DNA from: Rhizaria sp. SCN 62-66
Lineage: Eukaryota
Length of the DNA: 59,077 nucleotides
Direction: 5' to 3'
Assembly: GCA_001724265.1 (NCBI GenBank)
Contig: MEDY01000442.1
Span: 1 to 59,077 of the forward strand
Below the pieces are notes generated by a model. It was given only the letters and a program-made list of their open reading frames with translations, searched no databases and was not told the origin of the DNA. The translations under genes were made by a program, and so were the position numbers. Shown here in pieces: positions 1 through 47,600 of this stretch (positions within the stretch are counted from its first letter, which is position 1; each line of letters opens with the position of its first letter).

Positions 1-483
1 CTCGTTGTGGTCCATGATGCCCTTGGAGGTGGTCATGATGACGAGGCCGAACTGACGAGCGGGGAGGAGCTTGGTGGCCCACTCCTCGATCGACTCGAGG
101 GGCATGTCGAAGCGGGGGGAGATGACACCGCACTTGTTGATGCGACCGTTGAGGTTGACGACGATCTTGCCGGAGCGGCGGTCATCGACGATCTCGAAGT
201 CGTCAATGTAGCCTATAAACAGCAGAGCAGAACAAAGAAAAAGAGACAGATTGGGTGAGCGCAAGGTTCAGCTTCCGAAAGCGAATGCGAGAGAGGACGA
301 GCTTGGAGGGCGCTTAAGGTTGCTGTGAAGAACTAAGAGTGAGGACGTACCGTGCTTCTGCATGCACTGGAGGTACTTGACAACGACCTTGGAGGAAGGG
401 CGGACGATCACCTGGCGGCGGCCACGGCGCTCGGCGTTGGAGATGTTGACGAGAGTGTTGTTGAGGGTAGAGATAAGAACCAT
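1..483 (-). CDS. RPS15A: 40S ribosomal protein S15a (uS8), 3' end runs off the window; exons 483-351 and 212-<1
   Basis: ATG at 483. Exon 1 reads [44 protein letters not shown]. The intron 350-213 is GTACGT...TAG. Exon 2 continues [36 protein letters not shown]...LLPARQFG...[11 protein letters not shown], which is characteristic eukaryotic uS8. Confidence 0.96.
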
Positions 484-15292: not shown

Positions 15293-15861
15293 GCTGAGCA
15301 ACGCCACAAACTTTGCGGGGCTTAACGAGTGAGGATCGTACTATATTTGCGCTCTGCGCTTGAACTGTATGTAGTATATACAATATTATGTGATGCGCAC
15401 CGTAGGGCGAATGCTTAATGCGGGTGCGTCACGAAAACAACAACAACCCAAGTTATACGTTGTCTAAATAAGCGATGACTTGACACTGTAATTATTATTT
15501 CAAACATGTTAGCACGTTGAATACACATGCTTCTTCTGTTTTCATACGTATATCACTGCATTTCGATTGTTAAATTATGTTTATTAAATGTCTGATATTG
15601 TCATAGTACACGTCTGTTGTTCGTGTATGCGAGTATATTTGCGTTGCACGCTTGATTTTGATAAAATGAAGAGATGCCTCAAAAAAAGACACCTGGAAAG
15701 AAGAGATATCGTCATGATCACTCGTAATCTTGGACATATGACAATTTGCCTGAACTTTAAATGTTCTCATATAAATGCTCACATTTTATTTGAACCTGAA
15801 AATTGCGTCTGTACGCCGATCCCGTAGACATATCTGGGCAGCGCCTACACCGCCGCCCACA

Positions 15862-18800
15862 ATGTCTAAGTCTCCGCCAAACAAGCACGGGAAGGCCTCA
15901 AGACCTAGGGACCCTGAATCCTCGCCGCGTCTGCCGTCTACCACGCTTGGCCGCACGTCCTCGCTGACTGAAGACATGCTCGCACCTTCCGCCGCGACCG
16001 ATTTCGTCGACACCGACTCCACTGCTGAAGGATCTCACCCCAACAGCTCCCGCTCCGACGCCGCCACCTCGACGGCGCGAAGCGCGGCCACTGCGCGCGC
16101 GCTTGCATTGTCGCCAGGCAGCAGCAATTACCACCCCGCAGCTGCTGCAGCGGTGCGCGGCGCTGTGGCACGGCTCGCTCTATAGCTTGACGCTGAGGCG
16201 CCTGGTGAAGGGAGCTTTTACTTCGCCTCGCCCCCGCTCTCCGCCACCTCTGCCGCTGCCTCGGCGGCGCGCACAGCCGCGACATCTGCGAGCGAGAGCA
16301 AGTTTGATGCGCGTGCTGCTGTCTTGGAGTTGCTTAAGGCGCTTCCGCCTGGAACCACGATCGAAGACGCGCTCCGCACACTCAACAACAGTAACATTAA
16401 CAATGCCAAAACTAAGGCTGCAGCTGCGAGCCCTGAGGGTACAGATGCAGGCGCCAGTGCTGAGCTAGACAGCAATGACTCCTTTGATTCGAACATCTTT
16501 GCAAACACCGACAACATTGACGCTGGCGACAACGACACTGACGACGAAGACGGAGACGACGAGAGCGACGCTGACGCCGACGCGGCGGCGGCAACCGCGA
16601 GCCCCGGCTTTGGGCGCAGAGCGCGCGCGCCCGCGGCCCCGGGCGGGCTGTTGTGCTGCCTGCGCCGCTGCCTGCGCACGCGGCCCGGATGTTACTCGTT
16701 CTACTTCGTGACGCGGTGGCGCGTCACGCGCGCAGTGCTGTTCGCGCTCGCGCTGCTGCTCTTCTCCGCGCTGTTGCACCACGAGCGCGAGGCCATCAAC
16801 ACCAGCGTTCAGTCCGTGCAGACGCTGCTGCAGCGCCCGCGGCCGGGCGCCGCGCTTGCCGCCGCGGGGCTCAAGGCGCATCACCCGATCGTCATCGTGC
16901 CGGGCATCGTGTCCACAGGGCTCGAGGTCTGGCAGGGGCGCGACTGCACGAACGGACTGTTTCGCCAACGCATCTGGGGCTCCACAGTCATGGTGCGCAC
17001 GATCCTGCTCGGCGCTGCGTGCTGGGCTGACCACATGCGGCTTAATTACTCGACGGGACTTGATCCTGATGGAATCAAGGTGCGCGCCGCTGAGGGCATT
17101 GAGGCTGCAGACTATCTGTTGCCTGGTTTCTGGTACGTGTACGCATATTCTTATTTTTTTACTCACCATTTTTCCGTTAATTACATTTCACACACAAAAC
17201 GCTTTGCTAATCTGAATTATCTCCACTTTCTTCACTTTAATTTTGTTGATATCACAGGATCTGGGCCCGCGCAATCGAGGAGTTCGCTGCCGTAGGTTAC
17301 GATCCCTCGTCGCTGGCCCTCATGCCCTACGACTGGCGTCTGTCATACGCTGCGCTGGAGCGTCGCGACGGCTACTTCTCGCGCCTTAAGAGCCAGATCG
17401 AGGCGCTGCACCGCCTCAACGACGGCCGCAAGGTGGTTCTGCTGGCGCACTCGATGGGCTCACCTGTGCTGCACTACTTCTTCAACTGGCTCACCGCACC
17501 CGCCGCGCTGGGCGGCGCGGGCACGCCCGGGGACTGGACGGCGCGGCACATTGAGGCGCAGGTCCACCTGGGCGGCGCGCATCTGGGCGTGCCCAAGGCC
17601 GTGTCTGCGCTGCTCAGCGGCGAGATGAAGGACACGGCCGAGATGAGCGCCTGGCTCGCGGGGCTGCGGCAGCGCGCGCTGCTCAGCAACCTCGAGCTTA
17701 CGGGACTCTTCCGCGGCTTTCACTCTGTCGCGTCTATGTTCCCCAAGGGCGGCGACGGCGTCTGGGGCGGCGACGCGCGCACACTCGCGCGGCGGCCCGA
17801 CGACGGCGACGGCGTGTCGCTCTCCGCGGCCGAGACCTATGCGGCGTCCTCGTCGCTGTTTGACTGGCCGGCACCGGACGCGACGCCGCTGCGCGTGGGC
17901 TCCTGCGTGGCTTCCTACGAGCAGGAGCTCCTCTCCAAGCTCAGCATCATCCCCAGCACCAACAGCAACGCCGATAGCGACTCGTCGGTGGCGAGCCGTC
18001 TACGCGCGGGAGGCCGCGCCGTGCCCGGCGGCGAGGTGACCGCGGCCGCGGTGGGCGCGATGACTGACGCTGCCACTGTGGCCAAGGTTGTTGCGGGCGC
18101 GGCGGGCGCGGCCGTTGAGGCCCCTTCCAAGGCCGCCAAGGCCACGGCTGCGGCGGCCGCGGCGGCCGCGGGCGCGGCTGTTGGCGGCGCTGCCAGTGCG
18201 GCGCGCGCAGCTCTTGCTGGCGTCGTGAACCGCAATCCTAGCGCTATTGGCGACAACAACGCTGTGGACGACGACGGTGCTGACGGCGACGAGGACTGCG
18301 ATGATGGCGACAACGACGACATTGCTGGCCCTCAGGACGCGTATATGCCCTCGTCACTGCGCCATGCCGCCGCGGCGGCCGCCGCCGCTGCGGACGCCTC
18401 GTACCGTCTCCGGCCACGCCCCAACAAGGCTACCGGCGACGACAGCAACGATAATGATGAGCCGGGCTTCCACCCGCACGCGCGCCCCGCCGTCGCCCGC
18501 GCCGCCTCTGCGCCCACTCTGACCCGCCGCTGCAAGCGTCGCGGCGGCGGGCGCATGCGCCAGAGCGCGTTCGGGCAGCTGAGCCGGTCGGCGCAGTCGG
18601 ACTACTATGTGTTCCTGGCTATGCGCGAACTGCGGCGCATCGCGCACCTGCCGACGCCGGGGCCCTGCTCGCTGGCGGCGTGGGCCACGCTCGAGGCCGT
18701 GGAGACGGCGCTCGACGAGGCCGCCATTGCGCGCGCCGAGTCGGCGGCCGCGCACCGCGTGCTCGTGGCTGCGCCGCACGGACTCGTCTCCGCCACGCAA

Positions 18801-21677
18801 GCCGGCGACGGGCCCGACGCTGCTGCCGCCGCTGCTGACGGCGCCATTGCGGGCGTTGAGCTGGCCCCGGACTGGGCGTCGAAGCGCCGGCGCGCACGCT
18901 TCCACCGCTACGCGCGCCTGATGCGCGCCGCCACGGCCGCGATGCGCGAGGGCGACGAAGGCGACCATGGCGACGGCCACGACGACGAACAGGGCGACGC
19001 GGCCGACGGCGACTCCGCGCGCCTGGCCCGCCGCGCCCGCAGCCTTAGCCGCGGGCGCGGGCGCCCCGCCGGACACAGCGCGGCGGAGCGCGAGGAGCGG
19101 TTCGGCGAGAGCCCCGCGGCGCAGTGCAGCGCGATCGCGGTCGAACTGCTCGCGCGACTGCAGGAGCAGGAGCGCCTCGACGCCGCCGCCGCCTTCGCCA
19201 GCTCCGACAGCGCCTTCTCCGCCGCGGGCGGTGCTGGGCTGTCCACGGCCGACAGCGCGGCCGCTGTGTCTGCGCCCGCGTCCAGTGCTACCGGCGCCGC
19301 CCCGGCTGTCGGCGATGGCGTTGAGGGCTGGGCTGCGTCCTCGCGCGCGCGGCTGCAGTCGATCCTCGAGGTGACGCTGCCGCAGGCCGTGCTGGACTCG
19401 TACTTTGACCAGGATGTGCCGCTTCCGGCGGGCGCGCGTGATGTTGCCGCGATGATCGTGTTTAGCGACGTGCACACGCTCGCTGAAGCCGACGCCGCGC
19501 TGGACGCTGAAGAAGCCAATGATCAAGCGAACACGAACAAGGTGAATGCTGCGAACAACAGCGCGGCCAACACCAGTTCGAACGGCATCAACCTCGCAGG
19601 TTCGAGTGCGGGTGCTAAGGCTGAGACGGAGGCTGCGACGCCCGACGAGGTGTGTCAGTGCCCCGCGGACGCCTCTGCGAACGCGAGCATGGCTGATCTC
19701 GCTGCTGCTCCGGTCGCCGACGCTGCTGTTGCTGCTCCTGCCGCAGATGCTGCCACGGCTGCTGCTGCTGAGCCTGCCGCTGCCGACAACGGCACCTCCG
19801 GCAGCGCCGACGTTGCGAGCAAGGCCGACAACGTTGCCACGACTGCGGCGGCCGCGCTGGCCCGCGTACACGCCGCCGCCACAACCGCCGCTTCCGCTGC
19901 CACGACCGCGGCCTCCGCCGCCGCGACCGCCGCAGCCGCCGCCGCGGCCTCCGCGCTGCCGGACAAGCTGCTGCAGCTGATGGACCGCGAGGAGGGCACG
20001 GTCGCGCGCGCGCTGGCCGCGGAGGCGCGGCGCACGCTGGTCGAGAAGGCCTCGCGCCCACTCTGGGCCGCGGTCCGCCCGCCGCTGCGCTCCGCCGCGC
20101 CCGCCACGAATAGCACCGACTCCGCTGGCGGCAGCAACGCGGCGCGCGCGCAAAGCGTCTGCCAGTGCGTCGGCGCCGGTGTAAGCGCCAGTGCAAGCGC
20201 ACCCGCGACGCTGCGGGAGCCGGTCTCGGGGCTGAAGCCGCCCGCACGCGCGCCGTTCCCCTTCGCGGGCACGGGCGCTACGGTGACTTCGGTCGCGCAG
20301 GAGCTGCTGCCGCAGGTGGCGCCGCGCTTCTCGCGCTTCTTGCACTCGAGCTACGCGCTCACGCCGCTTACGCCGCCGCGCTTCAACGACACCGCCAACA
20401 GCACTAGCCAGGCGAGCGCGAGCTCGAGCGCGAGCGCGAGCGCTACAAGTGATGCGAGTACTCATGCCGACGGCGTAGATTTGTCTTTCCTGATGAAGCC
20501 CCCCGCTGACGGATCGCGGTCCATTTTCGCGAACCAGGCGGCGATGTACGCGCAGCGTGCGTGGTCGGACCCGCTGCTGACGCCGCTGCCGCACGCGCCC
20601 GACATGCGCGTGTACGACATCTACGGCGTCGGCAAGCCCGCCGAGCGCGGCTACGTCTACCGCCTCAACCCGGACCCGCTGGAGCGGCGCTTCCTCCCGT
20701 TTTTGATCGACACGCGCGTCAGCAGCAACGAGAACTGGATCAACCGCGGCGTGCGCCTTACTGACGGCGACGGCACTGTGCCGCTCGTCTCCCTCGGCTA
20801 CATGGTACGTTTAATCTGAATATTGAACTTTTCTTTTGTTTATGTGCCTTTTCTGAATCTTTCATCTCACTCCTTCTCACTCTCTTTAAACCTCTATTTA
20901 TTTTGTCTTGTTCTTGATTTCGCCTTGCTGTTACAGTGCGCGCGCGGCTGGGACCCCTCTGCGAACCCCGGTCTGAACCCGTCGGGCGCGCGCTGCACGG
21001 CCCGCGAGTACATCAACCACGGCTCCGACTCGGCCGTCACGGCGGGGCTCAGCGCGCTGCGTCTGCTGGGCGACTCGGGCGACCACGTCGACATTATCGG
21101 CAACGTCGACGTCATCGCCGATGTCATCAAGATCGCCGCCAGGGCCAGTCCCGAGGCCGTGGCGCGCAACCGCCAGGCCGCCGACGACGCCGCCGCCGCT
21201 GCGGAAGCCGCCAGAAAGGTTGCTGCGGCCGCGGCGGAGGCGGAGGCCACTGCCCCGAGCGTGATTGACGCGAGCAGCAGCGCCAACAGCGTTGTCAATA
21301 ATGGCGACAGCGACGGTGATCGCACGTTGAGTGCCGACATCACTGCCGAGGGCGCTGTCAAGACTAACTCTCGCAACAACGGCAACAAGACCAAGAGCAA
21401 CAGCGCGGGCATTGCTGCGAACAACACCAACTCCACGTCTGTTGTTGCCAACGTCAGCATTGCAGCGTCCTCTGCCACCGCGACAACGGCGGCGACGACG
21501 ACGGTTGCGGTTGGCACCGTGGACGCCACGGGCGTTGCGCGCGGCAGCTTCAACGGTTACGCGCTGCAAGAGGGCGAGGCCGTGGACGGCGAGGGCCGCT
21601 TCACGCTCCCAGAGCAGATCTACTCGTGCATTCGCGAGATCGCCGCCAAGGTGCGCCCGCCCAAGCCGCTCGGTTGA
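15862..21677 (+). CDS. PDAT: Phospholipid:diacylglycerol acyltransferase (PDAT/LRO1, LCAT family); exons 15862-17132, 17258-20804, 20937-21677; in-frame TAG at 16183-16185
   Basis: TM segment AVLFALALLLFSALL, then HPIVIVPGIVSTGLEVW, DPDGIKVRAAEG and PYDWRLS. Catalytic motifs AHSMG, DGDGTVPLVS and DHVDIIGN are present, plus WSDPLLTPLPHAPDMRVYDIYGVGKPAERGY. Introns 17133-17257 and 20805-20936 (GTACGT...CAG) join the exons in frame. The 5' start is uncertain because of the TAG. Confidence 0.92.
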
Positions 21678-22140
21678 GCCCCCAGCCAGATGAGTGGCGA
21701 TCACGCAAGTGTCTTGAGGATGACGAGTGTGATGGTGAACTGTTAATGTTTTATTATACGTGTCAACTTGATTGATTTGAGCTTAAATGTTCGTTTGTTT
21801 TTGTTTTTATTTTCTATTCTGTGATCAATTTGATTATTATTCCTCCCAACTAATACACACTCTGGGATTACTCCTGTGTTACGCACTCTGCCTACTGCAC
21901 TTTGCATATTCACATATCTCGCTCGTCTCTTTCATTTTAGTGTGTGTTTTATCGACTATTTCTTGAACTCTTGTCATTTTTTTCTGTATCGCGAATGATT
22001 CAGTGAAGACGTTCTGTAGCTTTATTTGCCTCCACGGTTTCTTGTTCAAACGATCAATAAGTTGATCGATCAAAAACAAACTCACAAACATCTTCAAGTT
22101 GCTTCCACTATAGATAACCTTAAAAAGCCTAAGGCCCACA

Positions 22141-22250
22141 GCTTGCGATCATACCACGATGAAAACACCAGATCCCGTCCGCTCTCTGAAGTTAAACACC
22201 GTTGGGCGCGCTAAGTACTGCGGTAGGTGACTACGACGTGGCCTGCAGCT
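22141..22250 (+). rRNA. 5S rRNA: 5S rRNA gene copy with a degenerate, shortened 3' end (probable pseudogene or 5S-derived element)
   Basis: GCTTGCGATCATACCACGATGAAAACACCAGATCCCGTCCGCTCTCTGAAGTTAAACACCGTTGGGCGCGCTAAGTACTGCGGTAGGTGACTACG is collinear with eukaryotic 5S positions 1-95 (CATACC, GATCCCGTCCG, GAAGTTAA, AGTACT). It then lacks the GGGAA segment and reaches TCTTCTTTTT early. Confidence 0.88.
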
Positions 22251-22251
22251 G

Positions 22252-22262
22252 TTCTTCTTTTT
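22252..22262 (+). terminator. Pol III-type oligo-T terminator after the 5S copy
   Basis: TTCTTCTTTTT immediately downstream of the 5S-like sequence. Confidence 0.5.
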
Positions 22263-22550
22263 GCTCTCCCGTACTCCGATCCTGCGACGAGGATCGTACG
22301 GACTATCTGCTGCGGAACAGCTTGAACAGTAATACAGACTGCAACCAATCTCATTACGTGAAAGCGGAGCATGACAATAATCCTGTTGTACGGTTGTATT
22401 ATACTTTTTATACTCACTTATCTCGGTCGATATTTAACAAAGCATAACATTGCTTATCATTCGTGCCTCTTCTTCAGAAGCACAAATAACTCCTTTCACT
22501 CAAAACAAACTCAATTCATTTACATTTACGAGGAAGTCTTTGTGGTTTGC

Positions 22551-24431
22551 TTAGAGCTTGGCGTTGGCGGCGGCCTTGTCGAGCGCGTACTGCAGCAGCG
22601 TCTGCATGCCGAAGCCGGTGGCGTTCTTGGGGAGCCAGTCGCGGGCCGTGATGCCCATGCCGGGGCCGGCGATGTCGAGGTGCGCCCACTGCACGCCCGC
22701 CTGGATGTACTTCTCCAGGAACGCGGCGGCAGAGCACGCGCCGCCCGTGCGCGCGCCCATCGAGTTGTAGTCGGCGTCCTCGCCCGCCGTCTCGGCGTGG
22801 TGCTCCTCCAAGATCGGCATGCGCCACAGGCGCTCGGCGTGGCGCGCGCCGGCCGCGGTGAGCGCGGTGGACAGGTCGGTCGAGTTGCTGAAGAGGCCGG
22901 CGGCGTGCTCGCCGAGCGCGATAGCGCAGGCGCCCGTCAGCGTGGCGATGTTGACGACGTGCGTGGGCTTGTACTCGTTCTGCACAAAGGTGAGCGCGTC
23001 GGCGAGGCAGAGGCGGCCCTCGGCGTCGGTGTTCATGTTCTGCACCGAGCCGATGTACGAGTCGAGGATGGCGTAGGGCTTGAAGGCCTTGGAGCCGATG
23101 GCGTTCTCGGCCAGAGCGAGCACGCCGACGACCTTGACGGCCGGGCGCGTCAGCGCCAGCGCGCGCATGGCGCCGATGACGGCGGCCGCGCCGCACTTAT
23201 CGAGGTGCATCGACTCGATGAAGCCGGTGGGCTTGAGGTTCAGACCTCCGGTGTCGAAGACGACGCCCTTGCCGACGAAGGCGATGAAGTCCTCATCGGC
23301 GCCCTTGGCCGCCGCGTTGGCGGTGTCGGCGAAGCCGTTGTACTCGAGGACGGCGATGCAGGGCGGCACGGCGGCGCCCTGGCCGACGGCGGTGATCATG
23401 TTGTACCCCTGCGCGAGCAGCTCGTCCATCTCGAGCACGCGGTACTTGAGCACGTCGGGGTGCGCGGCGGCGAGCGCGGCGGCGACCTTGGCGGCCGCGG
23501 CCGTAGTGAGCACCTCGGAGCGCTCGTTGCCGAACTCGCGCGAGAAGAGCAGCGACTCGGCGGCGGCCGCGGAGGACGCGAGCTTGGGCGCCAGACCGGC
23601 GGCTGTCTTGCCCTTGAAGGGGCAGCAGCACGCCGAGTCGGCCGAGGTGACGGCGGCGATGGTCACCGCGGTCAGGGGGTGGTTCTTCTGGGCGGCCGCG
23701 TCGGCCTTCCAGTACTTGTCCCACTTCCAGTTGCCGGTGATGACCATGCGGATGGTGGCATCGAGGACCATGCCACCGCACGCGGGCGTCGCGGGCGCGG
23801 ACAGCGGCACGGCGGCGGCGGCGGCGTCTGAGTCAGACTTGGGGAGGGGCTTGATGCCGGCGCCGGTGCCGAGCGGGACGGCCTCGAGGGCCGACACGGG
23901 CAGCGCGGGCAGGATCACGGCCACGGAGGCGAGCTTGAGCGCCTTGGCCTTCTCGACGGCGAGGTACACGGCGCCGCGGAGCGCGTTGATTGAGAGGTGC
24001 GCCGAGGCGGTGGCGGAGACGCCGTCGATGACGGAGCCCAGGCCGACGAAGATGGCAAGCCCGGTGCCCTCGGCCGCGGGGGCCACGGCGACCTGCTTGG
24101 CCTTGCCCTGGAAGCCCTGAGCGGCGAGGATGGTGCGAGTGGCGGCGGACACGGCGGGGCCGGAGGTCGCGAACAGCTCCTCGGCCGCGGTCAGGAACTG
24201 GACCGTGTTGGAACCGTTGGCGGTAACGGCGGCGGCGACGTCGGTGGAGAAGGAGAGCTTGAGCGTCGCGGCGGAGACCGAGGCAGTGTTGCCGTCGGCG
24301 GAGACGACGACGGTGGAGTTGGCGGGGGCCGTCTTGGCGAGGGCTTCGAGGCTCGAGGGGCGCGCGGCCTTGCGGGCGGCGACCTCGGCGGCCGGGTTAG
24401 CAATGCCGGGGGCACGACCGGAGCAGGACAT
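22551..24431 (-). CDS. Leucyl aminopeptidase, peptidase family M17 (626 aa, no intron in the CDS)
   Basis: Metal-binding motifs VGKGVVFDTGGLNLK, MHLDKCGAAAV, NTDAEGRLCLADAL, ATLTGA and WAHLDIAG. ATG at 24431 (MSCSGRAPG) in an ACAATG context; TAA stop. Confidence 0.95.
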   Translation of the reverse strand: MSCSGRAPGIANPAAEVAARKAARPSSLEALAKTAPANSTVVVSADGNTASVSAATLKLSFSTDVAAAVTANGSNTVQFLTAAEELFATSGPAVSAATRTILAAQGFQGKAKQVAVAPAAEGTGLAIFVGLGSVIDGVSATASAHLSINALRGAVYLAVEKAKALKLASVAVILPALPVSALEAVPLGTGAGIKPLPKSDSDAAAAAVPLSAPATPACGGMVLDATIRMVITGNWKWDKYWKADAAAQKNHPLTAVTIAAVTSADSACCCPFKGKTAAGLAPKLASSAAAAESLLFSREFGNERSEVLTTAAAAKVAAALAAAHPDVLKYRVLEMDELLAQGYNMITAVGQGAAVPPCIAVLEYNGFADTANAAAKGADEDFIAFVGKGVVFDTGGLNLKPTGFIESMHLDKCGAAAVIGAMRALALTRPAVKVVGVLALAENAIGSKAFKPYAILDSYIGSVQNMNTDAEGRLCLADALTFVQNEYKPTHVVNIATLTGACAIALGEHAAGLFSNSTDLSTALTAAGARHAERLWRMPILEEHHAETAGEDADYNSMGARTGGACSAAAFLEKYIQAGVQWAHLDIAGPGMGITARDWLPKNATGFGMQTLLQYALDKAAANAKL

Positions 24432-25528
24432 TGTCTGAGGTTGACGAAGCAAGCAGGCAAAACGGCGTCGCAGGGGTTGAAACAAAGGCAAAGTAAGGGT
24501 TGAGAGGGTTGGGGGTGAGTTGCGAGGCCAGATATGCGCGCATTTCAGAGTTTAGAGGGAAATCGGGCGGATATAGAATTATAGAGATCGTTGAAATAAC
24601 GCCGCTGAGTGGTGGTGATCAACAGTAGGCACGAAGGTGGTGCGCTGTGGGGTTGAGATAGGGACCCGTCGATGCAACGACGTCACCCTGATTGTCCGAA
24701 AAGAATCACGCGTGTGATCGCAATTCTGGCGCGCAAACTGCGAGCTGGAATATTAAACAGATAAACTACACGCACAGTAGCAACGAAAGACATGGGTGTT
24801 ATCGGTATGGGCGCTCGTTATAATGCTCATTTATCCTGTTAAAGCCGATCGCCCTTGGCCTCCGGTTGGGCTGCCGCGATGCATCGCGTTGTGTGGTCTC
24901 TCCGAAGCAGCGTCAATCAAGATCTATTCCAGTCTAACCTGAGCGTGGAGGTGCGATATGACAGAATCTATCGTATAGATAGGCTGCGTTATTCTTTTAT
25001 CACTTTAATTTGTAGTCGTGCACGCGCGTTTTGACTGCGAAACCAAAGCGCCGGATCTTCGCACATCAACCTCTCGCCACCTCTACCTCTTTCTCCTCTG
25101 CCTCAACACGCTTTCTCAGACTCAGACTCACAACATCACACCGCCACCATCATAACCACAACTAACAACGCTCGTCGCGCATTGAACTCATCACTCACTC
25201 CTTATCAACGTAACGCACTGTCAATCCATCTCAGCTCCTGCCTTCTCACCAAGCGTAAGCAGACTTTGATTGATTGCGACGGAGACTGAGTTAAGCGCAG
25301 CCTGAAACGACTAGAGTGGCGCTGCGAGTAGACCTGTCCTACAACAGCTGCTGTCACCTCTACCGTTCCTGTCCCAGCGAACGTTTAGACCTTGAGCGAC
25401 GTGCTGAGTGCGTCAGTGTGTTTGTGTGTGTGTGAGTGCATTTGTCGTGTGTGTGACTGACTGAGTGCACGTGTGAGGGAAAGAAACAGAGGTGCTCGAG
25501 TTTGCGCTTTGCTTTTTCAGGCCCATTT

Positions 25529-28362
25529 ATGATTCGTTCCTTCAGCCTCGCGTGCCGTGCTGCGAGCACCGTGAGCAATGTGTTCGCATCATCAATATCC
25601 GCCTCAGCGTTTACTGCTGCAACTGCTGCTGCTGTTGCTCCCATCACGTTATCATCGAGCTCTCGCTTTAGCACACAGTCACGGCCACTACCACGCTTAC
25701 TATCGCGGTCCCAATCGCTCACTCTCTCTCCTCTCTCCTCATCCGTCACTGCCACTGCTACAACAACTACTACCCCTGCCCGCCGCACATACTCGACCCT
25801 CTTCTCATGCTCTCTCTCCCGCTCCACGCCGCTCCTCCGCACTGCTGCTGCTGCCTCATCTGCCTCGTCATCATCTGCATCATTATCATCTGCTGTTGCT
25901 GATGTTGCTGTGGTCTCCGTACAGTCGCGTCGAATGTGCCTGTGCCACGCCCTGGCCGCCTCCGCCCCGCTGCTCGCGGCCCACGCCGCCGCCTGCGCCC
26001 ACGGCGCCCAGTCCGAGGGCTGCTCCCCGCGCGACGCCGAGGTGGCGGCCGCGCTGACGCTGCCCGACCCCTCCTCTTGGGCCAACCACGACGTCGCGCC
26101 CGTGACGCACATGCACTTCACGCTGCAGGCCGACTTCGCGAGCCAGACGCTCGCGGGCTCCGCCTTGGCGACCGTTGCCGCCAAGGAGCCCGTCGCGGCG
26201 CTGTCGCTCGACGTCAACGGGCTCACCGTCTCCCGCGTCACCCTGCTGACCACCAATGCCAACGCTGAGGCCGGCGACGTCGCGGAGGCCGAGACGGAGA
26301 CCGAGGCCGACTTCTGGATGACGCGCACCAAGGGCAAGCTGGGCCAGGCGCTCGTGGTTAAGTTCCCCGCGCCCGTGGCGGCCGCTAAGGTCAAGGTGTA
26401 CTACAGCACCGCACCCTCGGCCTCAGCCATCCAGTGGCTCGCGCCCGAGCAGACCGAGGGCAAGAAGCACCCCTACCTCTTCACCCAGTGCCAGGTACGT
26501 ACTGCGGAATATAAAATATCAATTATATCTTTGTTCTACTGAATCATGTCATGGTTTTTAGATTGATTTTACTTATGTATATATTATTCTGCTATTCTAT
26601 TGATAATTTACTTTAAGTGCTAATATATTCCGAATTATATTCTTCATATCTCTCTCGCAGGCGATCCACGCGCGCTCGCTGTTCCCTTGCCAGGACTCCC
26701 CCGGCGTCAAGTTCACTTACACGGCCGACATCACCGTGCCCGCGCCGCTGCAGGCGCTCATGTCCGCCGTGCTGCAGTCGACGACCCCCGTGGCGTCGGC
26801 GGACGGCGCGCTGCAGACGTGGTCCTTCAACCAGGCCGTGCCGATCCCGTCGTACCTCGTCGCGCTCTGCGTGGGCAACCTCGCCAAGGCGGACATCTCC
26901 GACCGTTGCGCCGTGTGGGCCGAGCCTGAGAAGGTGGAGGCGGCGGCGTTTGAGTTCGGCGAGACGGAGAAGTTCCTCGCGGCCGCCGAGGAGCTCTGCG
27001 GGCCCTACGTCTGGGGCCGTTACGACCTGCTGTTGATGCCGCCCTCGTACCCCTACGGCGGCATGGAGAACGCGTGCCTGACCTTCGTCACGCCCACGCT
27101 GTTGGCGGGCGACCGCTCGCTGGCCAACGTCGTGGCGCACGAGATCGCGCATTCCTGGTCCGGCAACCTCGTCACCAACAAGACGTGGGAGAGCTTCTTC
27201 CTCAACGAGGGCTTCACCGTCTTCATCGAGCGCAAGATCCTCGAGAAGCTTAACGGCGGCGCATTCAAGGGGCTCCACTCCATCATCGGCTGGGAGGACC
27301 TCAAGGGCTCTGTTGCGCAGTACGGCGCCGACCACCCCTTCACGCGCCTCCAGGTATGTCACGCAAAACGCATAATTTGACCTGCCTCTGTCATACGTTT
27401 ATCAAATGTGTTATCATTTAGATATAGTATATTTTATTCAATTGTCCCTTTATATTTTAGCTTTATTTTTTAACAAATGAACATATATTTTAATTGTTGT
27501 TTGATTTCGCCACACTAAACCATGACAGGTGACTCTGGCGGGCGAGGAGGACCCCGACGACGCCTTCTCCTCCGTCCCCTACGAAAAGGGCTGCACGCTC
27601 CTGACCCACTTCGAGACCCTGGTGGGCGGCCCCAAGGTCATGAACGCCTTCCTCAAGGCCTACTTCGCGCACTTCAAGTACCAGTGCATCTCCACTGACG
27701 ACTTCCGCGGCTTCTTCCTCTCCTTTGCCTCGGCCAACGGCGTCCCTGCCGCGAAGCTCGACGCGATCGACTGGGACACGCTGCTCTACGCGCCCGGGCT
27801 GCCCGTGCGCCCGGAGTTCGACGACTCGCTCGCGCGCGACGTGGCCGCCGCCGCCGAGGCCGTCATCGCCGGCGCCGCCGTCCCGGCCAGCTGCAACTCG
27901 GCGCAGTGGACCTCGACGCAGGTCATCGTGTACCTGGACAAGCTGATCGACGCGCACGACGGCGAGGTCACCACCGCCAACGCCGCCGCGGACCCCGCGG
28001 CCGCGCGCGCCGCCGTGGCCGCCAAGTGGCTCGCGGTGATGGAGCGCGCGTTCGAGGGCGTCGTGCCTTCGGTTGCGGCGATGAAGGCCAACCCCGAGCA
28101 GAACTTCCGCTACCTCACGCTCATGGTGCGCGCGGGCCCCCGCGCGGGCGAGGCCGCGGCGGCGACGGCGGCGGCCGCGGAGGCCTTTCTGGTGAGCAAC
28201 GGGCGCATGAAGTTCGTGCGTCCGCTGTACCGCGACCTCTTCACTTCGGCCTTCAAGCCCCAGGGCGAGGCTGTATTCAAGCGCGTCAAGGCGCAGTACC
28301 ACTCCATCTGCGCCAAGATGGTCCAGCGCGACCTCGACGCCGCCACCAACCTCTGGGACTAA
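25529..28362 (+). CDS. LTA4H: Leukotriene A4 hydrolase-like M1 aminopeptidase; exons 25529 (or 25934)-26494, 26661-27353, 27529-28362
   Basis: [48 protein letters not shown]...NEGFT zinc motif, [14 protein letters not shown] and [10 protein letters not shown]. Introns 26495-26660 (GTACGT..CAG) and 27354-27528 (GTATGT..CAG) are phase 0. Confidence 0.95.
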
Positions 28363-28753
28363 GCGCGTCGCGCACCGAAGCGCGTTGCAGACTGGGAAGA
28401 GAGCGAGAGTGTGTGAGCATGTGCAAGCAAACAATGTTTGTGTTTGCTTGATTGGAATGTTGATGTACATGTACTATACTGCGTGAGGCTAATCAGGACT
28501 CGGATCTTCTATAAAAGTATACAATAAAGATTTACGTGTTTAAGCTTTTGTAATCGATTTTATTGCTTGTATTTATTTCTTAGATCTGAGTTGCTTCTGT
28601 ACACATTTACTTCACTGGCCCGTTTTCGCCGCTGTGTCATGTTATGATGTTGTTCTTTTTGTTGTTCTTTTTGGTTATTAATCTCACACATTTCCTCTTA
28701 CTCAAATTATAGTCAAATAACCCTCCACATGTCACATCTCTCGCTCACCCCTG

Positions 28754-31009
28754 TCACTCACTAGCCAGCCCCGGGCCCGGTGCACCAGAGGCGCCGGCCT
28801 TGCGGCTGTACTGGGCGATGAACTTTGCGTAGGCCGCGTAATAGGGTTGTCCGCCCTGGAAGAAGGTCGTGTTGTGCTCGCCGCCGGGGACGCCGAAGAA
28901 CACCTTATCCCCGCGCCCGCCCCCCACGGTCACGATGCTCGACCCCGCCGCCGCCGCCGCAGGGGCACCAGCGCTGTTTTGGTTGTTTTGGCTGCTGTGC
29001 GCGAGCGGAGTGGAGCCCTGCTGCGCGGCGGCGTGCAGCGCCTGCATCTGGCTGGGCGGGACGAGCTCGTCGGCGAGCCCGCAGATAAAGAGCGCGGGCA
29101 CGGCCAGCGAGGGCGCGAGGTCGATGCTGCGCCAGTGCGATGTCATGAAGACGTGCAGGAACGCGCGCAGGGGCCGCTCCAGCGCGCCGAGGCCGACGAA
29201 GCGGCCGGCCAGCTCGACGGCCATGTCCTCGATGCTGGTGAAGGTGTTCTCAACGACGAGGCCGGCCAGTGCGTCGGGCCGCTGGGCCGCCAGCCAAGTC
29301 GCCACTGCGCCGCCGAGCGAGCGGCCGAAGACGAAGAGGCGGTCCGGGTTGATGCGGCCCGCGCGCGCGAGGCGCTCCGCGAAGGAAAGCGCGGCAAGCG
29401 CGTCGAGGCGCAGGCCGTGCTCCGAGGGCGAGCCCTGGGAGTTGCCGTAGCCGCGGTACTCGAGCACGATGGTGTTGCAGCGCAGGTAGTGGTACATCTG
29501 CCGGCAGTTGACCAGCAGGTTGCCGATGTCTAAAAAGTGCGAATATAACAGAAATGAAGAGTAAATTCAATAAAAAATGTAAGAAATGCATATATAAAGT
29601 CATAAGCACAAGTCAAATCTCAAACGCGCCATAGTCTGAGCAAGATATCCAAAGCATCGCAGAGTCTCGAGTCTGTCTGTTAACGTACTACCCGCGTTGC
29701 CGTGGAAGTAGATGACTGTGGGGCACGTTGCGCGCACGTGGTCGGCGGCCTGCGGGATAAACCACGCGTGCAGCAGCACCCCGTCAGCGGCGCGCAGGAA
29801 GACCTCCTCGTAGGGCAGGCCCTGCTCGGCGGGGGTGCGCGAGCCTGGGGGGTTGTACCGCAGCTGGCGCTTCTCGCCGCTGCGTCCCATGACGGTGGGC
29901 ATATACAGCACCAGGCCTTGTGCCCACCACACGCCAAAGAGCGCCAGCGCGGCAGTCCACAGGACAGAGCGCAGCAGCCCCCAGGCGAGGGCGACGGCTG
30001 CGGCTGCGGCAGCGGCGGCCCACTCGGCGAGAAACATATCTCCCAGGGGCTCAGTCAGCGCGAGCGCGCGGCGCCAGGCGGCGGGGGACGCGGCTGAGGA
30101 CGCCGAGGTGGCCAGCAGCGACGCAAAAGTGGCTGCGGCGGAGGCGGCGGAAGCGGAGGACTCGGACGCGAGCGCTGACGTTGCCGCTGACGCAGAGGCA
30201 GAGTCGAGAGCGAGCGCGGAGGCGGCGGCAGTCGATTTGGCGACGACTGCGGCGACGACGGCGGCGGCGGCGGCGGGGAGCGCGGCGGCGGCGGCGGCGG
30301 CGGTTGCGGAGGCGGCGGCTGAGTCGAGGCCGGCTGCGATGGAGGCCGAGAGCGAGCCTGAGTGACTGTGAGAGTAAGGCTCACTGCCGGAGAGGCGATC
30401 GGAGAGAGAGTGGCTGTGGTCGCTTAGCGGCTCTAACTCAGTGCTGCTCCGAGAGTGCGGCTCCGAGTCTGGGTGATGCGGCGAGGTTGTAGTTGTAGTG
30501 ACTGTGAGTCCGGAGTCCAAGTCCTCTTCCTCAGTCGTTGTAGTCGTCGTCGTCGTCGCAGTGGCGCTCGAGTTCGTGTGACTTGCGTGATTCGGCGACG
30601 CAGGAACAGATGACGCGGACGAACGTGACCGTAACTAAGGCTGCGAGGGTGACGGGGCGAGGATTGCGGCAGCGTTGCCGTTGTTGCCGTGAAAGTTGCT
30701 GTGGTGATGGAAGCTGATTACGGTCTCGGTGCCGTCCTCAATCACGTCGTTGTCGTTGTCGCTGCTCTTAGCCGGTGGCTGCGACTGGGACTCGGAGGTC
30801 GAGACGAGAGACGCGACGGCGGGGTCGGACGCGGCGTCTGCGTCTGCGGCGTCAACAGCGGGAGCTGAAGGAGAGCTGGAGCTTGGGCTGGGGTGAGCGC
30901 GAGCGCGAGTTGTCTGAGCAGGAGCGGGAGCGGGAGCGGCAGCAGGGGCGGGGGCGGCGCGACGTGTGGGCTGTTCTGAGGGTCGGGCTGCTGCGGCGTG
31001 GGTCTGCAT
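28754..31009 (-). CDS. ABHD13: ABHD13/Bem46-like alpha/beta hydrolase; exons 31009 (or 30037)-29689 and 29529-28754; in-frame TAG at 30637-30635 if the upstream ATG is used
   Basis: TM segment then QGLVLYMP, DGVLLHAWF, YFHGNAG|NIG, EYRGYGNSQGSPSEHGL, nucleophile FGRSLGGAV, VENTFTSI, DELVPP and GGEHN. Intron 29688-29530 is GTACGT...TAG; TGA stop. The start codon is uncertain. Confidence 0.9.
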
Positions 31010-39715: not shown

Positions 39716-40036
39716 CGTAACATGATTAATGATATCTCGGGGATATTAGGCCGAAAAGCTTTTGTACGTAGTTTATATCTTGATAATACAAACGAATTTA
39801 TTTATATTCGCAATAATACTTTTACTATGTCATGTTCTTGCATGACTATGACGGTTATGAGCCTTAGCAGGACCACGGGTTTGGTTCGCAAAAAGTCTGG
39901 GCTGTTCGCAAAAAAGGAGGTAATAAAAATGGGACCATTTTTTTGTCCGGCCGGGGCATCGATGCCGCACCGAGACGACGGTCTTGAAACGTGATTCCTG
40001 ATTGACTAACCTTAAGGTTTGGGTATTGCATAAACA

Positions 40037-41692: not shown

Positions 41693-44600
41693 ATGACCGT
41701 GCTCGACGTGATCCGCGTGGTGTTCCCGATGCTGCTGCTTGCAGCGTCGGTGGTGCGCCTCACCTTGTTTTCCCTCGGCTATTTCGTCTTCTTCATCTGG
41801 TTCCTGCTGTTCCGCCCCATCGCCGTCGTGCTCTACCGCACGCGCTACCGCGTCTCGCGGCCCTACTGGGCGCTCGTCACGCTTTACTCGGCGCTCTCGC
41901 TGCTGGGCCAGGTTGTCTTCCAGATCACCATCGCGTCCTCGTCCTTCTACCCGACGCGCGCCACCGAGCTCTTCGGCTGGGCGGAGATCAACTCTGTGCT
42001 CGAGGGTTTCCAGCTCGTCGGCACGGACGTCGTCATGACCGTCGCGTCGCTGCTCTGTGCCGTGCTCGCCTCGCGCAACACCTCGGCGACCGCGCTCACG
42101 GCCGCGCTGCCGCCGCCCGTGGCCGTGACGGCGCTTCAGTGGGGCACGGCCGCCTCGCTGCTCCTGGCCGGCCTCATGTACCCCTCGTTCCTCGCGCTGC
42201 CATACCTGCTCGCCTTCGTTGCCTACTTCCTCGCCAAGGCCTACCGCATTCAGCCCGTGATCGACATCGCGACCGGCCGCCCCGCGGGCACCTCGCACTA
42301 CTGGGACCTGGACGCCCAGCCTACGGGCCCCACCGCGTCGTCGCAGTCCATCTCCACGGCCTCGCGCGCCGCCGCAGGTCTCGCGCCGGGCGTCTACGGC
42401 GTCTCGCTCCCCGCCGCACACGCCGGTAGCAGCAGCAGCAGCAGCAGCGCGCAGCAGCAGCAGCAGGGCAGTGGCGCTGGCGCTGCGAGTCGCTACGCCG
42501 CCGCCGCTGTGCACGGCTACGGCGACGACAGCTCCTCTTCTGCGGCGGTGATCGCCGAGGACGTCAACGACGAGTTCTACGCCATGCTGGGGCTTGAGCG
42601 TGAGCGCCGCCGCCGCGTGTCGTTATGGGCGCCCCCCACGCCCGCGGCCGAGCTGACCGAGATCCAGCGCCGCATCAGCCAGCAGCAGCAGCGCTTCAAC
42701 CAGGCCGCCGCGGGCGCGCGCAGCGCGCGCTCCGGCTCGGTCTACGCGCCGCCCACGGGCTCCACGGCCGGCACGCCCGCGCGCGGCGGCGGGCTTATGT
42801 TCCCGTCTAATTCCCAGCCGCAGTCGCAACAGGCGCAGCAGCAGCAGCCCTGGGGCCGTCAGCACTCGCAGAGCGTCGCCACGCTGCCCTCCAGCTCCGC
42901 CGCCGCCGCCGCCGCCGCTGCGAGTCGACAGCAGCAACAGGGTCCGGGCCAACAGGGTCAGCACCACGTGGTCGTCGCGGGCGCGGGCGTCGTGTTGCGC
43001 GTGTCCTCGGCCTACGCGCCGCTGGACCGGCGCGCGCGCGTGCTGACGTGGTTTGGCATCCTCTACACGGCCTGCCACATGCTCGTGCTCTATAGCGCCA
43101 ACCTCCCGGGCGGCGACGCTGACCCTTTCCCGGACCCGCTGGGGCTCTTTTCGATCCGCGACCTGGGCAACAGTGGCGTGCTGGCGGGGCTGTCCGCTCT
43201 GTCGACGGCGCTGCTCTTCGCCTTGCTGACCGAGATCATCGCGCAGGACGCCGTGTCGCGCGCGCTCGTCGAAGACATCAGCTTCCACTCTGTCACGCGC
43301 AAGCTCGTGCGCCACGCCCGCGCCGCCTACGCGGCCGCGGCGGCCGCGGCGGCCACGGCGGCGGGGCTGCCCTCGGCCTCGGCCACGCTCGCCGCCGCCA
43401 CCAACGCCGCCAACGCCTCTGGCTCTGCCGCCGCTGCCGGCGCTGTTGCCCACAGCAGCAGCAGCAGCAGCGGCGCCGGCACCGGCGGGCACCAGTACGC
43501 GTACTCGCCCGCCCACGGCTACGGCGGCGGCCCCGGCTCCCTGGCCCCCAGCTCCTACGTCAGTGCGGGCTCCTACGGCGCGCCCATCGGGTCCGCCGCC
43601 GTTGCCGCCGCCACCGCGGGCTCCGCGACGGGCCCCGTCGTGGCGGCCGGCAACGCGGCCGCGATCGCGCGCGCACGGTCCGGCTCCATGCTGGGGGTTC
43701 GACCCCCGCAGCTCAGAACGCACTCGTACGCCGCCCCCGGCGGCGACTCCGCTGGCCTCCCCGGCGGCGCGGCCGGGCTGAGCCACGAGGCAGCCGCCGC
43801 CGCCGCGTCCGCCGCCGCCGCCGCAGCTGCCGCCGCGTCCGCCGCGCTGGCGGCCGCGAACGCGAATCTGGCGGGCGTGACGGCTGAAGTTGACGTGGCG
43901 AAGCTGGCGCAGGTGCTATCGAGCGCGGTGCAGCAGACGCTGCAGGTCTCGCGCTTCAGCTCCGCGGCGTCGGGTGGTACGGGCGCGCACCACCCGCTGC
44001 TGCTGACGCCTGCGCAGCGTTCCGGCAAGGTCACGGTGGTGTGGAACGCCGTCAAGGTCGAGGTCATGATCGCGCTGCTGCACCTCGCGCGCACCCTGTG
44101 CCACCTGGTGCTGCTTGTGTGCTCGCTGCTGCGGCCGTCGCTGCTGTCGTACGGGTTTATGATCCTGTTCGTGCTGACCTGCTGCCTGCCCGGCAAGCTG
44201 CTCAAGCACGGCGTCGGCGCCGTCGTCGCCTACTCGCTCGTCGTCACCATGGTTCAGTACATCACCTCCATCCCGGGACTCGTGCCGCAGGACGCCGCCG
44301 CGCTCGCGCACGTGGGCATCCAGCGCATGCGTAACCCGCTCTTCTCGCTGCTCAACTCGATTGCGCCCGCGCTCGTGTGCGGCTGGGTCTACGCGTGGTC
44401 GCAGCTCACGCCCGTGGACCAGCTCGCGCTCGAGCAGCGCGACCGACGCCAAACGACCAACCTCGCCACCAACTGGGTGCTGCGCGCCATGCAGTTCGCC
44501 AAGGCCTCGATGCTGTACCTCTGCGACAAGCTGGCGCTGGCGCTGCTATTCCTCGTCTCGCTCTACACCGTTAACATCTTCCACGCCGTGTTCCTGCTCA

Positions 44601-47600
44601 TCTTCATCGTCTTCTTCTCCATGCGCCGCGTCGCCGCCGTGCTGTGGCCGCTCTTCGTCGTCTACGCCGGACTCGTCCTGCTCGCGCTTTACGGCTTCGG
44701 CGTCATCGACCCCTGGGTCAACGGCGTCCGCGACGACAGCAACGCCAACGCCAACAGTATCAACCTCAGTCTGAGCGCTTCTCAGAGCGCCGGTCCTGCT
44801 GGCATCGTGTATTCGTACAGTGCTTCCGCGAGTGCGAGCGCCGGCGCAAGTGCCTCGATGAAGGCGACGGCCGCTGCGTCCGGCCTTGCTTTCGAGCCCT
44901 TCGTCGCTACCGCTGCTTCCTCTGCCGAGGATGGCACCGATTCACTGTTCGATGGCACCGTCAAGATCCGTCCCTTCTCGACTGACAGCAACGGTGATAG
45001 TGACGGGGACGCCGACGCCTCGCTGTCTTCGGCCTTTCCGCACTCCGGCGCCAGCGCCGCGGCGAGCGAGCCCGCGTCGCTGTGGTCCCGCGCGGCCGCC
45101 AAGGTCCGCGCCGCGGCCGCGCGCCTGCGCAGCCCCGCGGCCGCGCGTTTTCTCGCGGCGACCGCGCGCCTCACCGCGCACCCGGAGGACCTGCAGCGCC
45201 AGCAACAACTGCAGCAGAAGCAACAGACTGAGACCGCGCCGGCCGCCAGTGCGGGCGCCCCTCGCCCCTCGACTGCGGGTGGTGAGAGCAAGTCTACGGT
45301 GTACGTCCGTTCGTTCGCGCGTTGGATGCGCTTCATGACCCAGCCCGCGGGCTCCCTCTCTGCCGCTAAGCACACTCCGAGCGCTGACGGCGCTGTTGAG
45401 AGCGATGCTTCTACAGTGCGCAGCAGCGGGTCTGTGAGCGCCAACTCGGCGACGGACTCGCGCGCGATCATCGAGAACATTGGCCTCTTCGCGCCCACCT
45501 CCGGCGCCGACTGGTGGCGCTCGCTTGTGCTTTACTACCTCACCTTCATCGCGGCCGCGTTCCAGTGGGCCATCTTCCGCAATCACATCTCGACGTACGT
45601 CAACTCGATGCTCAAGCACGCGTCGCCCGGCTGGCTGGTGCTGCGCGATTCGCTGGTACTCGTCGTCGTGTACGCGGGCGTGCTGGCGTGCTCGCTGCCC
45701 TACCAGGCCTCGGTGTTCAAGCTGGGCGCCGCGCTCTTCGTCGTCATCTCGCTCCTGGTGCACATGTTCGCGCGCTCGGACCCGCGGCCCGCGCTGCTGC
45801 GCATCTGGATCGTGGCCGTGGTTTACATGGCGGCCGTCTTCGTGCTCGTCTACCTGTACCAGTTCCAGGTCATCCGCGACTGGATCCACGACATCTACCC
45901 GCTCGACCGCTTCACGCCCACGGACATGGGCTTCGAGCTCGCGTCCCCCGCGCGCTTCGCAGTCCTCGTCTCGCTCTCCGGCCCCGTCTTCTGCTTTATC
46001 CTCGCCGTCATGTTCGTCCGCATCCTGCTGGACTCGTCCACGGCGCCCGGCGATCTGGAGAAGTACCACGACGCGCTCCGCGAGCTCGAGCTGCTGCCGG
46101 GCTCCCAGGGCCCGCTCACGCTCGCGGCCCAGGAGGTCGAGCACGCCGACAGCTCGCTCGCAGTCTCCGGCTTCGTGCTCAACCTGCAGTCGCGCCCCGC
46201 GGCCAGCGCCAGCGTCTCCGCCAACAACGCGGCCGGCGCCCCCGGACTGGGCCCCGCGCAGCCGCCGTTCGTGTCGGGCACGCAGCCCGGCGTCCGGTCG
46301 CTGTCGTCTTCCTCGTTCTCTTACAACAGCAGCGCCTCCGCTTCCGCTGCTGCTGCCGCGAACGCCGCGCCCAACCTCAGCGCTGGCGCGGGCTCCGGGT
46401 CGATGCCCGGCTCTGTGTCTGGCTCGTGGCGCCGCGCGGGCCCCGTGCTGGGCTCCTTTAGCGAGGAGCCGGAGCACTACGGCGCCGCGAACAACGGCAG
46501 CAACCGCGGTGTCGGAGGCGTGGGCCTGAACTCGCACGGCCACTTTTCGACCAGCGGGGGCCCGCTGCCACCGCCGCCGCCGCCGCCGCTGCCGCCGGCC
46601 GTGCCCGCTGCGCCCGCTGACGACGGCAGCTCGCTCGACAACAATGCTACCGCTGCGAACGGCCACAACAGCAACACTGGCACGCGCGGTGGCCGCCGCG
46701 GCATGGCCTCGCCGCCGCCCCCGCCGATGATCTCGGCCGCCAACGCTACGCACGCCGGCGCCGTGCCGCCGCCGGTGCCCCAGGCCCCCGCGGCGCCCGT
46801 GCCGGTCGGCGGCGTCGCGCTGCCCCAGATGGTGTCCGCCGCTCCCGCTGCGCCGCCCCGCACCACGGCTTACGCGCCGGCCGCGTCGCCGTCGTTCGCG
46901 ACCGTGCCGCCTACGTTCGCCAGTGCGTCTGCCGCGCCTGCTGCGCCTGCCGCGCCGCCTGCGCTGCCGGCGCTCCCCAACATTGCTGCTCCTGCTGCTC
47001 CTGCTGCCCCTGCCGCGCCCGCGGCCCCCGCGGCCCCCGCGGCTCCGACTGCTCCGGCCTACTTTGCCCCGGCCGCGCCCGCTGCGCCTGCAACGTATAC
47101 GGCCCCTCCGGCCCCCGTAGCGCCTGTCCCCGTCCCTGTTGCTGTTCCGGCTGCGCCTGCGGCTACCGTTTCTGTTGCTGCTGCCCCGTCGTTCCCGCGC
47201 CGCGGCGCCGCCCCGGTCGACGGCGCGGTCTCCGCGGCTCTGTCCAGCGTGGCCGCGGCGGCGCCCGAGTCGTCCACGGCCAGCTACGTCGCGCTGCCAG
47301 ACTCGTACCGCCCCAGCAACAACAACAACAACAACAACAACAGTAGTAGCGCCAACAACGCCATTACGAACTCGAGCAGCGGTGCGCGGTCGCCTGTGCC
47401 GCCGCTGCCGCAGCCGTCGCTGCCGCAGCGCGTGGCGAGCGGCGGGCAGGACTCGCTGCCTGGCGCGAGCCTCCAGGCGCTGCGGCACGGCGAGAGCCTG
47501 GCGGACTGGGTGCAGCGCCACCCGCAGTACCGCGACGCCGTGGATCGCGCCAAGAAGATCATGAACCTGGAGGCGACGGAGAACATCGCGGGCAACCCGC

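Follow-up and report, generated by a model that had tools for sequence, protein, structure and literature searches.

Nuclear genetic codes in which UAG alone has changed its meaning are represented by Iotanema spirale, where UAG encodes glutamine and 204 in-frame UAG codons were counted in 126 genes, and by the rhizarian exLh, where it encodes leucine and 384 were counted in 71 genes (PMC5304391). These codes show 1.6-5.4 in-frame UAG codons per gene, many of them at hyperconserved columns, and the true stops UAA and UGA number 104/15 and 56/15 in Iotanema and exLh, respectively (PMC5304391). Repeated UAG reassignments have also been described in phyllopharyngean ciliates (PMC11687900), and Condylostoma, Parduczia and Blastocrithidia use context-dependent codons that can be either stop or sense (PMC5304391, PMC12153298). 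In Fusarium and Neurospora, restorative adenosine-to-inosine (A-to-I) editing concerns dozens of genes with genomic premature stops (PMC10776026, PMC11156358). Here we analyze contig MEDY01000442.1 of Rhizaria sp. SCN 62-66 (assembly GCA_001724265.1), the whole length of which (59,077 nucleotides (nt); hereafter the window) is 59-kb nuclear DNA. Two of its genes, one of the PDAT/LCAT family (hereafter PDAT) and one for an ABHD13-like alpha/beta hydrolase, are each interrupted by a single in-frame TAG. We tentatively suggest that UAG is decoded at both sites at least part of the time, a reading that we favour over each single alternative and hold to be possible, if short of likely.

Two in-frame TAG codons are present in independent DNA

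Both interruptions reported in the initial annotation were found where it had placed them. The PDAT frame reads ...VARLAL*LDAEAPG across the TAG and is shared with ATG 15862 and the LCAT/PDAT domain; the ABHD13-like frame reads ...PSPSQP*LRSRSS and is shared with ATG 31009 and the alpha/beta-hydrolase domain (Table 1). We compared contigs of four sequencing runs with the window at 90% likeness over 15.8 kb, with only part of the pieces and joints listed. Two of these runs, X3 and X4, each belong to a study different from the one that probably yielded the assembly. Their contigs span positions 15500-16497, 15500-16599, 30326-31014 and 30366-31300 with no other letters and no gaps, and no variant at either TAG codon is listed in the four compared runs. 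Run X14 gave short partial matches only. Furthermore, a database open reading frame (ORF) of 69 amino acids, P0156, which is encoded on a further contig of 1559 nt, corresponds exactly to PDAT residues M39 to L107 and ends right before the TAG. Because the independent contigs match without difference, the two TAGs are not assembly errors, and the alternative that the DNA reads CAG at these sites can be set aside, since the independent contigs have TAG.

Table 1. Coordinates of the two TAG codons, of the genes that contain them and of the other features of the window.
Feature	Coordinates	Strand	Remarks
In-frame TAG of PDAT	16183..16185	+	Codon 108 of PDAT model; same in X3 record 9 and X4 record 16
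In-frame TAG of ABHD13-like gene	30635..30637	-	Codon 125 of ABHD13-like model; same in X3 record 15 and X4 record 23
PDAT/LCAT-family gene	15862..21677	+	Three exons
PDAT frame upstream of TAG	15862..16182	+	107 codons; ATG 15862, second in-frame ATG 15976
Rest of PDAT exon 1	16186..17132	+	Acidic low-complexity tail, membrane helix, start of LCAT domain (PF02450, E 1.4e-09)
PDAT exons 2 and 3	17258..20804, 20937..21677	+	PF02450, E 5.4e-49; stop TGA
PDAT introns	17133..17257, 20805..20936	+
Sole candidate intron removing PDAT TAG	15811..16185	+	GTACGC...TATAG, 375 nt, about 60-70% GC
ABHD13-like alpha/beta hydrolase gene	31009..28754	-	Two exons
ABHD13-like frame upstream of TAG	30638..31009	-	124 codons; ATG 31009, T at -3
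ABHD13-like frame, TAG to next in-frame ATG	30038..30634	-	75 codons lacking a clear signal, followed by 123 that are coding-like and rich in Ala/Ser
ABHD13-like core	28754..30037	-	ATG 30037 (MFLAEW..., membrane helix); PF00561 (E 4.7e-12), PF12146, PF00326
ABHD13-like core parts	Exon 1 to 29689, intron 29688..29530, exon 2 29529..28754	-	Stop TGA
uS8/S15a ribosomal protein (RPS22) gene	From ATG 482, continues past window edge	-	Named from translation
ORF of 4541 codons	1667..15292	
5S rRNA gene	22141-22247	+	Rfam RF00001, 64.7 bits
M17 leucyl aminopeptidase	24431..22551	-
LTA4-hydrolase-like M1 peptidase (LTA4H)	25934..28362		Three exons
ORF of 2716 codons	31565..39715
5402-codon gene	41693..58047	+	One intron

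A coding signal flanks each TAG

The window supplied about 15,400 codons for training codon log-odds, and the score of each segment was compared with those of 500 dinucleotide-preserving shuffles. Five non-coding controls (four leaders and one intron) gave z scores from -1.6 to 0.5, and a control exon reached 8.0. The PDAT frame upstream of the TAG scored 2.2, or 2.7 from the second ATG (M39), and the 87 codons that follow the TAG (16186-16446) scored 4.8, with no stop in this frame and nine in another. For the ABHD13-like gene, the ORF upstream of the TAG scored 5.1, with a coding-like island at about 30900-30640 (log-odds up to 1.07, GC content at third codon positions 0.77-0.87). The 75 codons after this TAG (30634-30410) scored 1.1, and the next 123 (30409-30041), the clearly coding-like codons ahead of ATG 30037, scored 6.7. 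A coding signal in the same frame thus flanks each TAG; it is real but uneven. Open frames alone are weak evidence here because the LTA4H leader stays open in frame for 159 codons (25457..25933) without coding signal. In five other profiled genes (B, M17, LTA4H, I and J/K) the signal starts at the ATG, and reading of the sequence gave ATG 482 as the start of RPS22.

A plain upstream ORF in a 5' leader was considered and rejected, as the upstream ORFs score 2.2-5.1 against -1.6 to 0.5 in the controls, and as PDAT would be left without an AUG of its own. The ABHD13-like gene does have its own AUG, at 30037, a feature shared with such an arrangement.

The PDAT gene appears intact beyond its TAG, with about 1,740 codons and no further lesion, and its C-terminus lies about 4 residues from the end of the relative P0128 (judged by eye). 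No in-frame ATG occurs between the TAG and the conserved domain; the next one, in 'STVMVRT', is already within that domain, beyond the membrane helix. Four ATGs in other frames stand in between, at 16307, 16403, 16445 and 16475. As there is no later in-frame ATG before the membrane anchor, an anchored PDAT enzyme needs an upstream start. Relatives carry 420 (P0127) and 128 (P0128) amino acids ahead of the anchor, so a long N-terminal extension is normal in this PDAT group. The predicted protein has 1851 residues, whereas fungal relatives (P0005, for example) have about 600-700, and its exon 2 contains a very large low-complexity insertion that separates two matched LCAT stretches.

TAG is absent from the seven visible stops, and the in-frame TAGs probably arose from sense codons

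The initial annotation had counted eight true stops in the window, none of them TAG. The absence of TAG stands, and the count is seven (four TAA and three TGA), since one TAA (52337-52339) is part of an intron of 146 nt. Genes ending in TAG, proposed there as an observation that would speak against a changed code, were indeed not seen among these seven. Several visible stops sit at expected protein ends; the M17 and LTA4H domains, for example, end 14 and 8 residues ahead of their stops. Finding no TAG among seven stops is not significant (P about 0.06-0.13 if the TAG share is normally 25-33%) and gives weak support for a changed code.

The composition of stop triplets says more about the origin of the two codons. 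Of the stop triplets that lie out of frame in coding DNA, about 10% are TAG (22% window-wide), and the chance that two random non-coding stops are both TAG is 1-5%. Single-base nonsense changes from this codon usage give TAG in 55-78% of cases. Most likely, then, a sense codon preceded each TAG, in once- or still-translated sequence. Such an origin fits tolerated UAG decoding or recent nonsense mutations, and argues against a mere leader.

Codon bias in the window is extreme, with TTA occurring once, AGA four times and ATA five times in 15,178 core codons. TTA occurs twice in the 349 codons of the ABHD13 front part alone, compared with that single core occurrence, and other very rare codons also concentrate in these N-terminal stretches. 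A very rare sense-codon role of TAG may be compatible with such a bias. The description of the two TAGs as isolated sites among well over 15,000 codons, both in non-conserved N-terminal regions, held up: there are two in about 16,600 modelled codons, in low-complexity extensions.

Possible partial decoding of UAG and the observations that weigh against it

If UAG is decoded, the ribosome would not always stop at the two UAGs and an amino acid would be inserted. Translation would start at the upstream AUG (15862 in PDAT, 31009 in the ABHD13-like gene) and cross a long, disordered N-terminal extension before reaching the membrane anchor and, after it, the catalytic domain. UAG, as a leaky stop or a very rare sense codon, would be infrequent and weakly tolerated: it would be restricted to regions where codon selection is weak, and the rest of the genes, with their strong bias, would avoid it. 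Passage of UAG is itself an inference; a suppressor tRNA, a near-cognate tRNA or a weakened eRF1 might bring it about, and the residue put in is likewise conjectural. Within this reading, a genome-wide reassignment in which UAG is a very rare sense codon seems quite improbable; the extreme codon bias would then exclude UAG from most coding sequence, and the codon would survive only in weakly selected, disordered N-terminal extensions.

A number of observations weigh against decoding. TAG does not occur in the 15,178 core codons, which contain 584 CAG codons and CTG and TTG at 614:41; going by this last ratio, roughly 39 TAGs should occur if TAG and CAG were freely interchangeable. The coding signal is weak upstream of the PDAT TAG and absent directly after the ABHD13 TAG, and the ABHD13 ATG 30037 is a normal-looking start from which the upstream part is not required. 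In a crude window-wide scan of stop triplets (180-nt flanks, score >0.2 on both sides) neither of the two TAGs passed. The sites that did pass were five TAG, six TGA and no TAA, and 10 of these 11 lie in non-coding frames over genes, mostly antisense, with the remaining one in the RPS22 intron. Comparison with known leaky-stop motifs revealed none common to both sites (CUA UAG CUU versus CCU UAG UUA, +4 C versus T), and in the 100 nt that follow the TAGs the predicted folding does not exceed that of shuffled sequence (z -0.21 and +2.21). None of the eight listed pieces of the RNA library X5 covers either site, which leaves RNA as evidence in neither direction.

Homologues did not help the case for decoding either. 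Both TAG sites lie in unconserved low-complexity N-terminal extensions. No relative among the best 150 of 707 matches PDAT residues 1-150, and a search with the ABHD13 front part returned only the window's own ORF among 4519 candidates. The N-terminal block AAVLELLKALPPGTTIEDAL, which PDAT has in common with P0004, is not significant alone (E 3.0). Since nothing aligns to either site, glutamine and leucine cannot be told apart by inference. P0004 is a 71%-identical PDAT fragment that starts about 42 codons past the TAG-equivalent place; presumably it lies with P0008, a 73%-identical M17 protein, on one 9844-nt contig. The window itself contains neither tRNA genes nor a gene for eRF1, and an Rfam scan of it finds only the 5S rRNA.

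Taken together, these data suggest that site-limited decoding or readthrough fits better than full reassignment, with the standard-code explanations together about as likely. A settled genome-wide reassignment is poorly supported. Of the proposal in the initial annotation that UAG is a sense codon of a non-standard code, one part fared well, in that the ordinary explanations tested mostly failed, and the other did not, given the lack of TAG in the core codons.

Alternative explanations

The rival that survives best, although we consider it unlikely, is that the code is standard and the TAGs are true premature stops that arose recently by nonsense mutation, in N-terminal extensions that are disordered and dispensable. 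Leaky scanning to AUG 30037 would then still yield the ABHD13-like enzyme, and PDAT would be null or produced at a low level from a near-cognate start such as UUG 16324. With the high share of TAG among single-base nonsense changes (55-78%), two TAGs would be expected. AUG 31009 has T at -3, and the next ATG in any frame is 30037, which has G at -3 and yields an ABHD13-type N-terminus with a membrane helix that we take to be typical of the family. The absence of TAG from the core codons fits this explanation as well, as do the dips of the coding signal at both TAGs and the very rare codons adjoining them (CTA TAG and TAG TTA). Against it, lesions in two of eight genes within 59 kb imply a heavy genome-wide load, although three long ORFs (4541, 2716 and 5402 codons) show no interruption, and PDAT would be dead although its downstream codons carry no lesion. 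The same TAGs are also present in contigs from other studies' runs dated 2017 and 2025. The lack of any ATG in the 964 nt of the ABHD13 leader is not significant (shuffle P 0.15).

Slightly less likely again is that mature mRNAs do not contain the in-frame TAGs, because of an atypical intron or because transcription starts downstream of the TAG and initiation is non-AUG. All seven recognisable introns of the window start with GTA[CT]G (five GTACGT, one GTATGT and one GTACGA), are 125-175 nt long with a GC content of 27-49%, have T-rich 3' ends and finish in CAG (five) or TAG (two). Pyrimidine-rich runs precede both in-frame TAGs, so that with two of seven known acceptors being TAG a splice site is conceivable. 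AT-richness is not required either, as shown by the RPS22 (uS8/S15a) intron (350..213; 138 nt, 49% GC, in-frame TGA at 270-268), from which local introns are not necessarily AT-rich. One in-phase GTACGC donor does exist upstream of the PDAT TAG, and the intron that it would define leaves a 12-codon AT-rich first exon from ATG 15775. At 375 nt and about 60-70% GC, this candidate departs from the known seven in both length and composition. It has neither a T-rich tract nor a CTAAY branch motif, the latter recognised by eye in at least three of the seven known introns, and it shows a weak in-frame coding signal. Judged from these features, the candidate is unlikely to be a real intron.

The ABHD13 TAG is harder still to explain by splicing. 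No GTA[CT]G donor lies in range, two GTG-type candidates leave no upstream ATG, and the strong coding island just upstream of the TAG (z 5.1) would have to be intronic or untranslated. A T-rich tract or a CTAAY motif was not seen ahead of either TAG. The proposal, also made in the initial annotation, that the TAGs are splice acceptors is therefore not borne out by sequence, as neither looks like the local type. Two further arrangements were tried and rejected. An intron of the U12 type beginning with GTATCC (about 31019) would take out ATG 31009, so that the gene would lack a start; moreover, no AG was seen within about 26 nt after the branch-like CCTTAG. Tiny in-phase introns of 33 nt (GTGCGC, 16153) and 87 nt (GTAATC, 30721) are unlike all seven known introns. 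Among the 15 joints listed of 319, none is a splice joint that removes a TAG, with RNA cover of the sites unproven. One contig of the X5 RNA library (record 26, 20552-20855) extends 51 nt into PDAT intron 2 with no joint, so that this library contains unspliced RNA or DNA-derived contigs.

A start downstream of the PDAT TAG is favoured by the ORF of the relative, P0004, which begins about 42 codons after the equivalent place. At the position of that start the window has a UUG with G at -3 and +4, and a gene caller began P0003 there. Other genes of the window begin at ATG, which speaks against a non-AUG start.

Very improbable, in our view, is editing of UAG to UGG (tryptophan), like the restorative A-to-I editing of filamentous ascomycetes. 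UAG with U at -1 is the preferred ascomycete target (PMC11156358, PMC10776026), and both interruptions are UAG. The organism is, however, a stramenopile by its best named matches (oomycetes, 52-53% identity) and not an ascomycete. Neither TAG adenosine falls in a predicted hairpin loop, the PDAT one being paired at a loop edge and the ABHD13 site unstructured (fold z -0.09 and 0.99), and an A>G change at 16184 or a T>C change at 30636 is not listed in the four runs, where RNA cover of the sites is unproven. Finally, an assembly or sequencing artefact is a negligible concern: coverage is low in the compared contigs (about 5-7x), and contigs of two further runs from different studies agree with each other and with the ORF of another contig.

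Genomic context and source organism

The window has a coding GC content of 60-78% with AT-rich intergenic DNA, very long ORFs, and few and short introns. Its proteins are rich in low-complexity runs of Ala, Ser, Thr and Pro, and three of its genes span 2716-5402 codons. The longest consists of two giant ORFs (41693..52339 and 52390..58047) joined by the intron at 52310..52455 (146 nt, GTACGA...CAG), which connects 41693..52309 in frame to 52456..58047. Between two giant genes, the spacer at 39716-41692 covers nearly 2 kb. Its forward strand is rich in C and T (C up to 0.44, G down to 0.16), no ORF stands out in it, and it may represent a promoter region or a long leader. The LTA4H leader (25457..25933) is C-rich, with a G-C skew down to -0.69, and ATG 25934 rather than the upstream ATG 25529 is probably the start of LTA4H. 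The 5S rRNA gene stands alone between PDAT and the M17 peptidase and accounts for a spike in depth of run X4 (316x, bin 21824-22350).

Among named matches to the M17 enzyme, oomycete proteins come first, at 52-53% identity, and unnamed metagenomic proteins reach 63-73%. On these protein matches, the source organism, an uncultured eukaryote, is placed as a stramenopile outside the sequenced oomycetes. DNA of the window recurs in bioreactor, wastewater and activated-sludge runs. A metagenome scan with M17 gave 105 pattern matches and one locus (L001, 3847 nt), which is from the same organism and covers neither TAG. The same kind of scan with the PDAT alignment gave 594 pattern matches, none of them confirmed. 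In a collection of prokaryote genomes none of 59 matches was confirmed, and a 30-nt stretch had no exact matches.

Significance and comparison with known systems

To our knowledge, nuclear code changes are few, and in nearly every known case the reassigned codon was already common when the change was discovered. If UAG is decoded here, the window would show an early or low-usage stage of stop-codon capture, an early or ambiguous state that theory predicts but that has seldom been observed. A reassignment would also make this the first stramenopile with a nuclear code change as far as the surveyed literature shows, since no nuclear UAG change in this group was found among the titles and abstract openings that this survey covered. 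Organisms of this kind would be mis-annotated by gene callers that use the standard code; in the database, P0003, P0006 and P0156 are ORF fragments that the TAGs have truncated. Should the TAGs instead be tolerated premature stops or reflect odd splicing, the finding would be an ordinary one, and would call for caution with long open GC-rich leaders.

Programmed readthrough is known from the tobamovirus UAG-CAR-YYA context, from retroviral UAG followed by a pseudoknot, and from peroxisomal extensions in fungi and animals, and in the known cases it extends a C-terminus or makes a fusion. The window resembles these cases in that a longer protein would arise whenever ribosomes get past a single UAG, which they would do with some frequency. 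It differs in that the stop is N-terminal, so that the whole PDAT enzyme would depend on passage, and in that neither a leaky context nor a stimulating downstream structure was found at either TAG. With the editing systems of Fusarium and Neurospora it has in common a genomic in-frame UAG in otherwise intact genes; the lineage differs at the level of kingdoms, and here there is no hairpin-loop context and no edited base listed.

As in Condylostoma, Parduczia and Blastocrithidia, a stop codon could terminate or encode depending on its position in the mRNA, and both UAGs of the window are far from the 3' end. Those organisms have many in-frame stops, of more than one kind, whereas here the density of in-frame stops is very low and only UAG is concerned. 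The phyllopharyngean ciliates likewise involve UAG alone; there the host is a ciliate with genome and transcriptome support, and here it is a stramenopile-like contig. Unlike Iotanema and exLh, the window has two in-frame UAGs in eight genes (about 16,600 codons), none of them at a conserved column, so that the many in-frame UAGs at conserved columns that characterize these UAG-only codes are not a feature of this 59-kb stretch. Like both of them, it has frames that are interrupted by UAG only, and its visible stops are UAA (four) and UGA (three).

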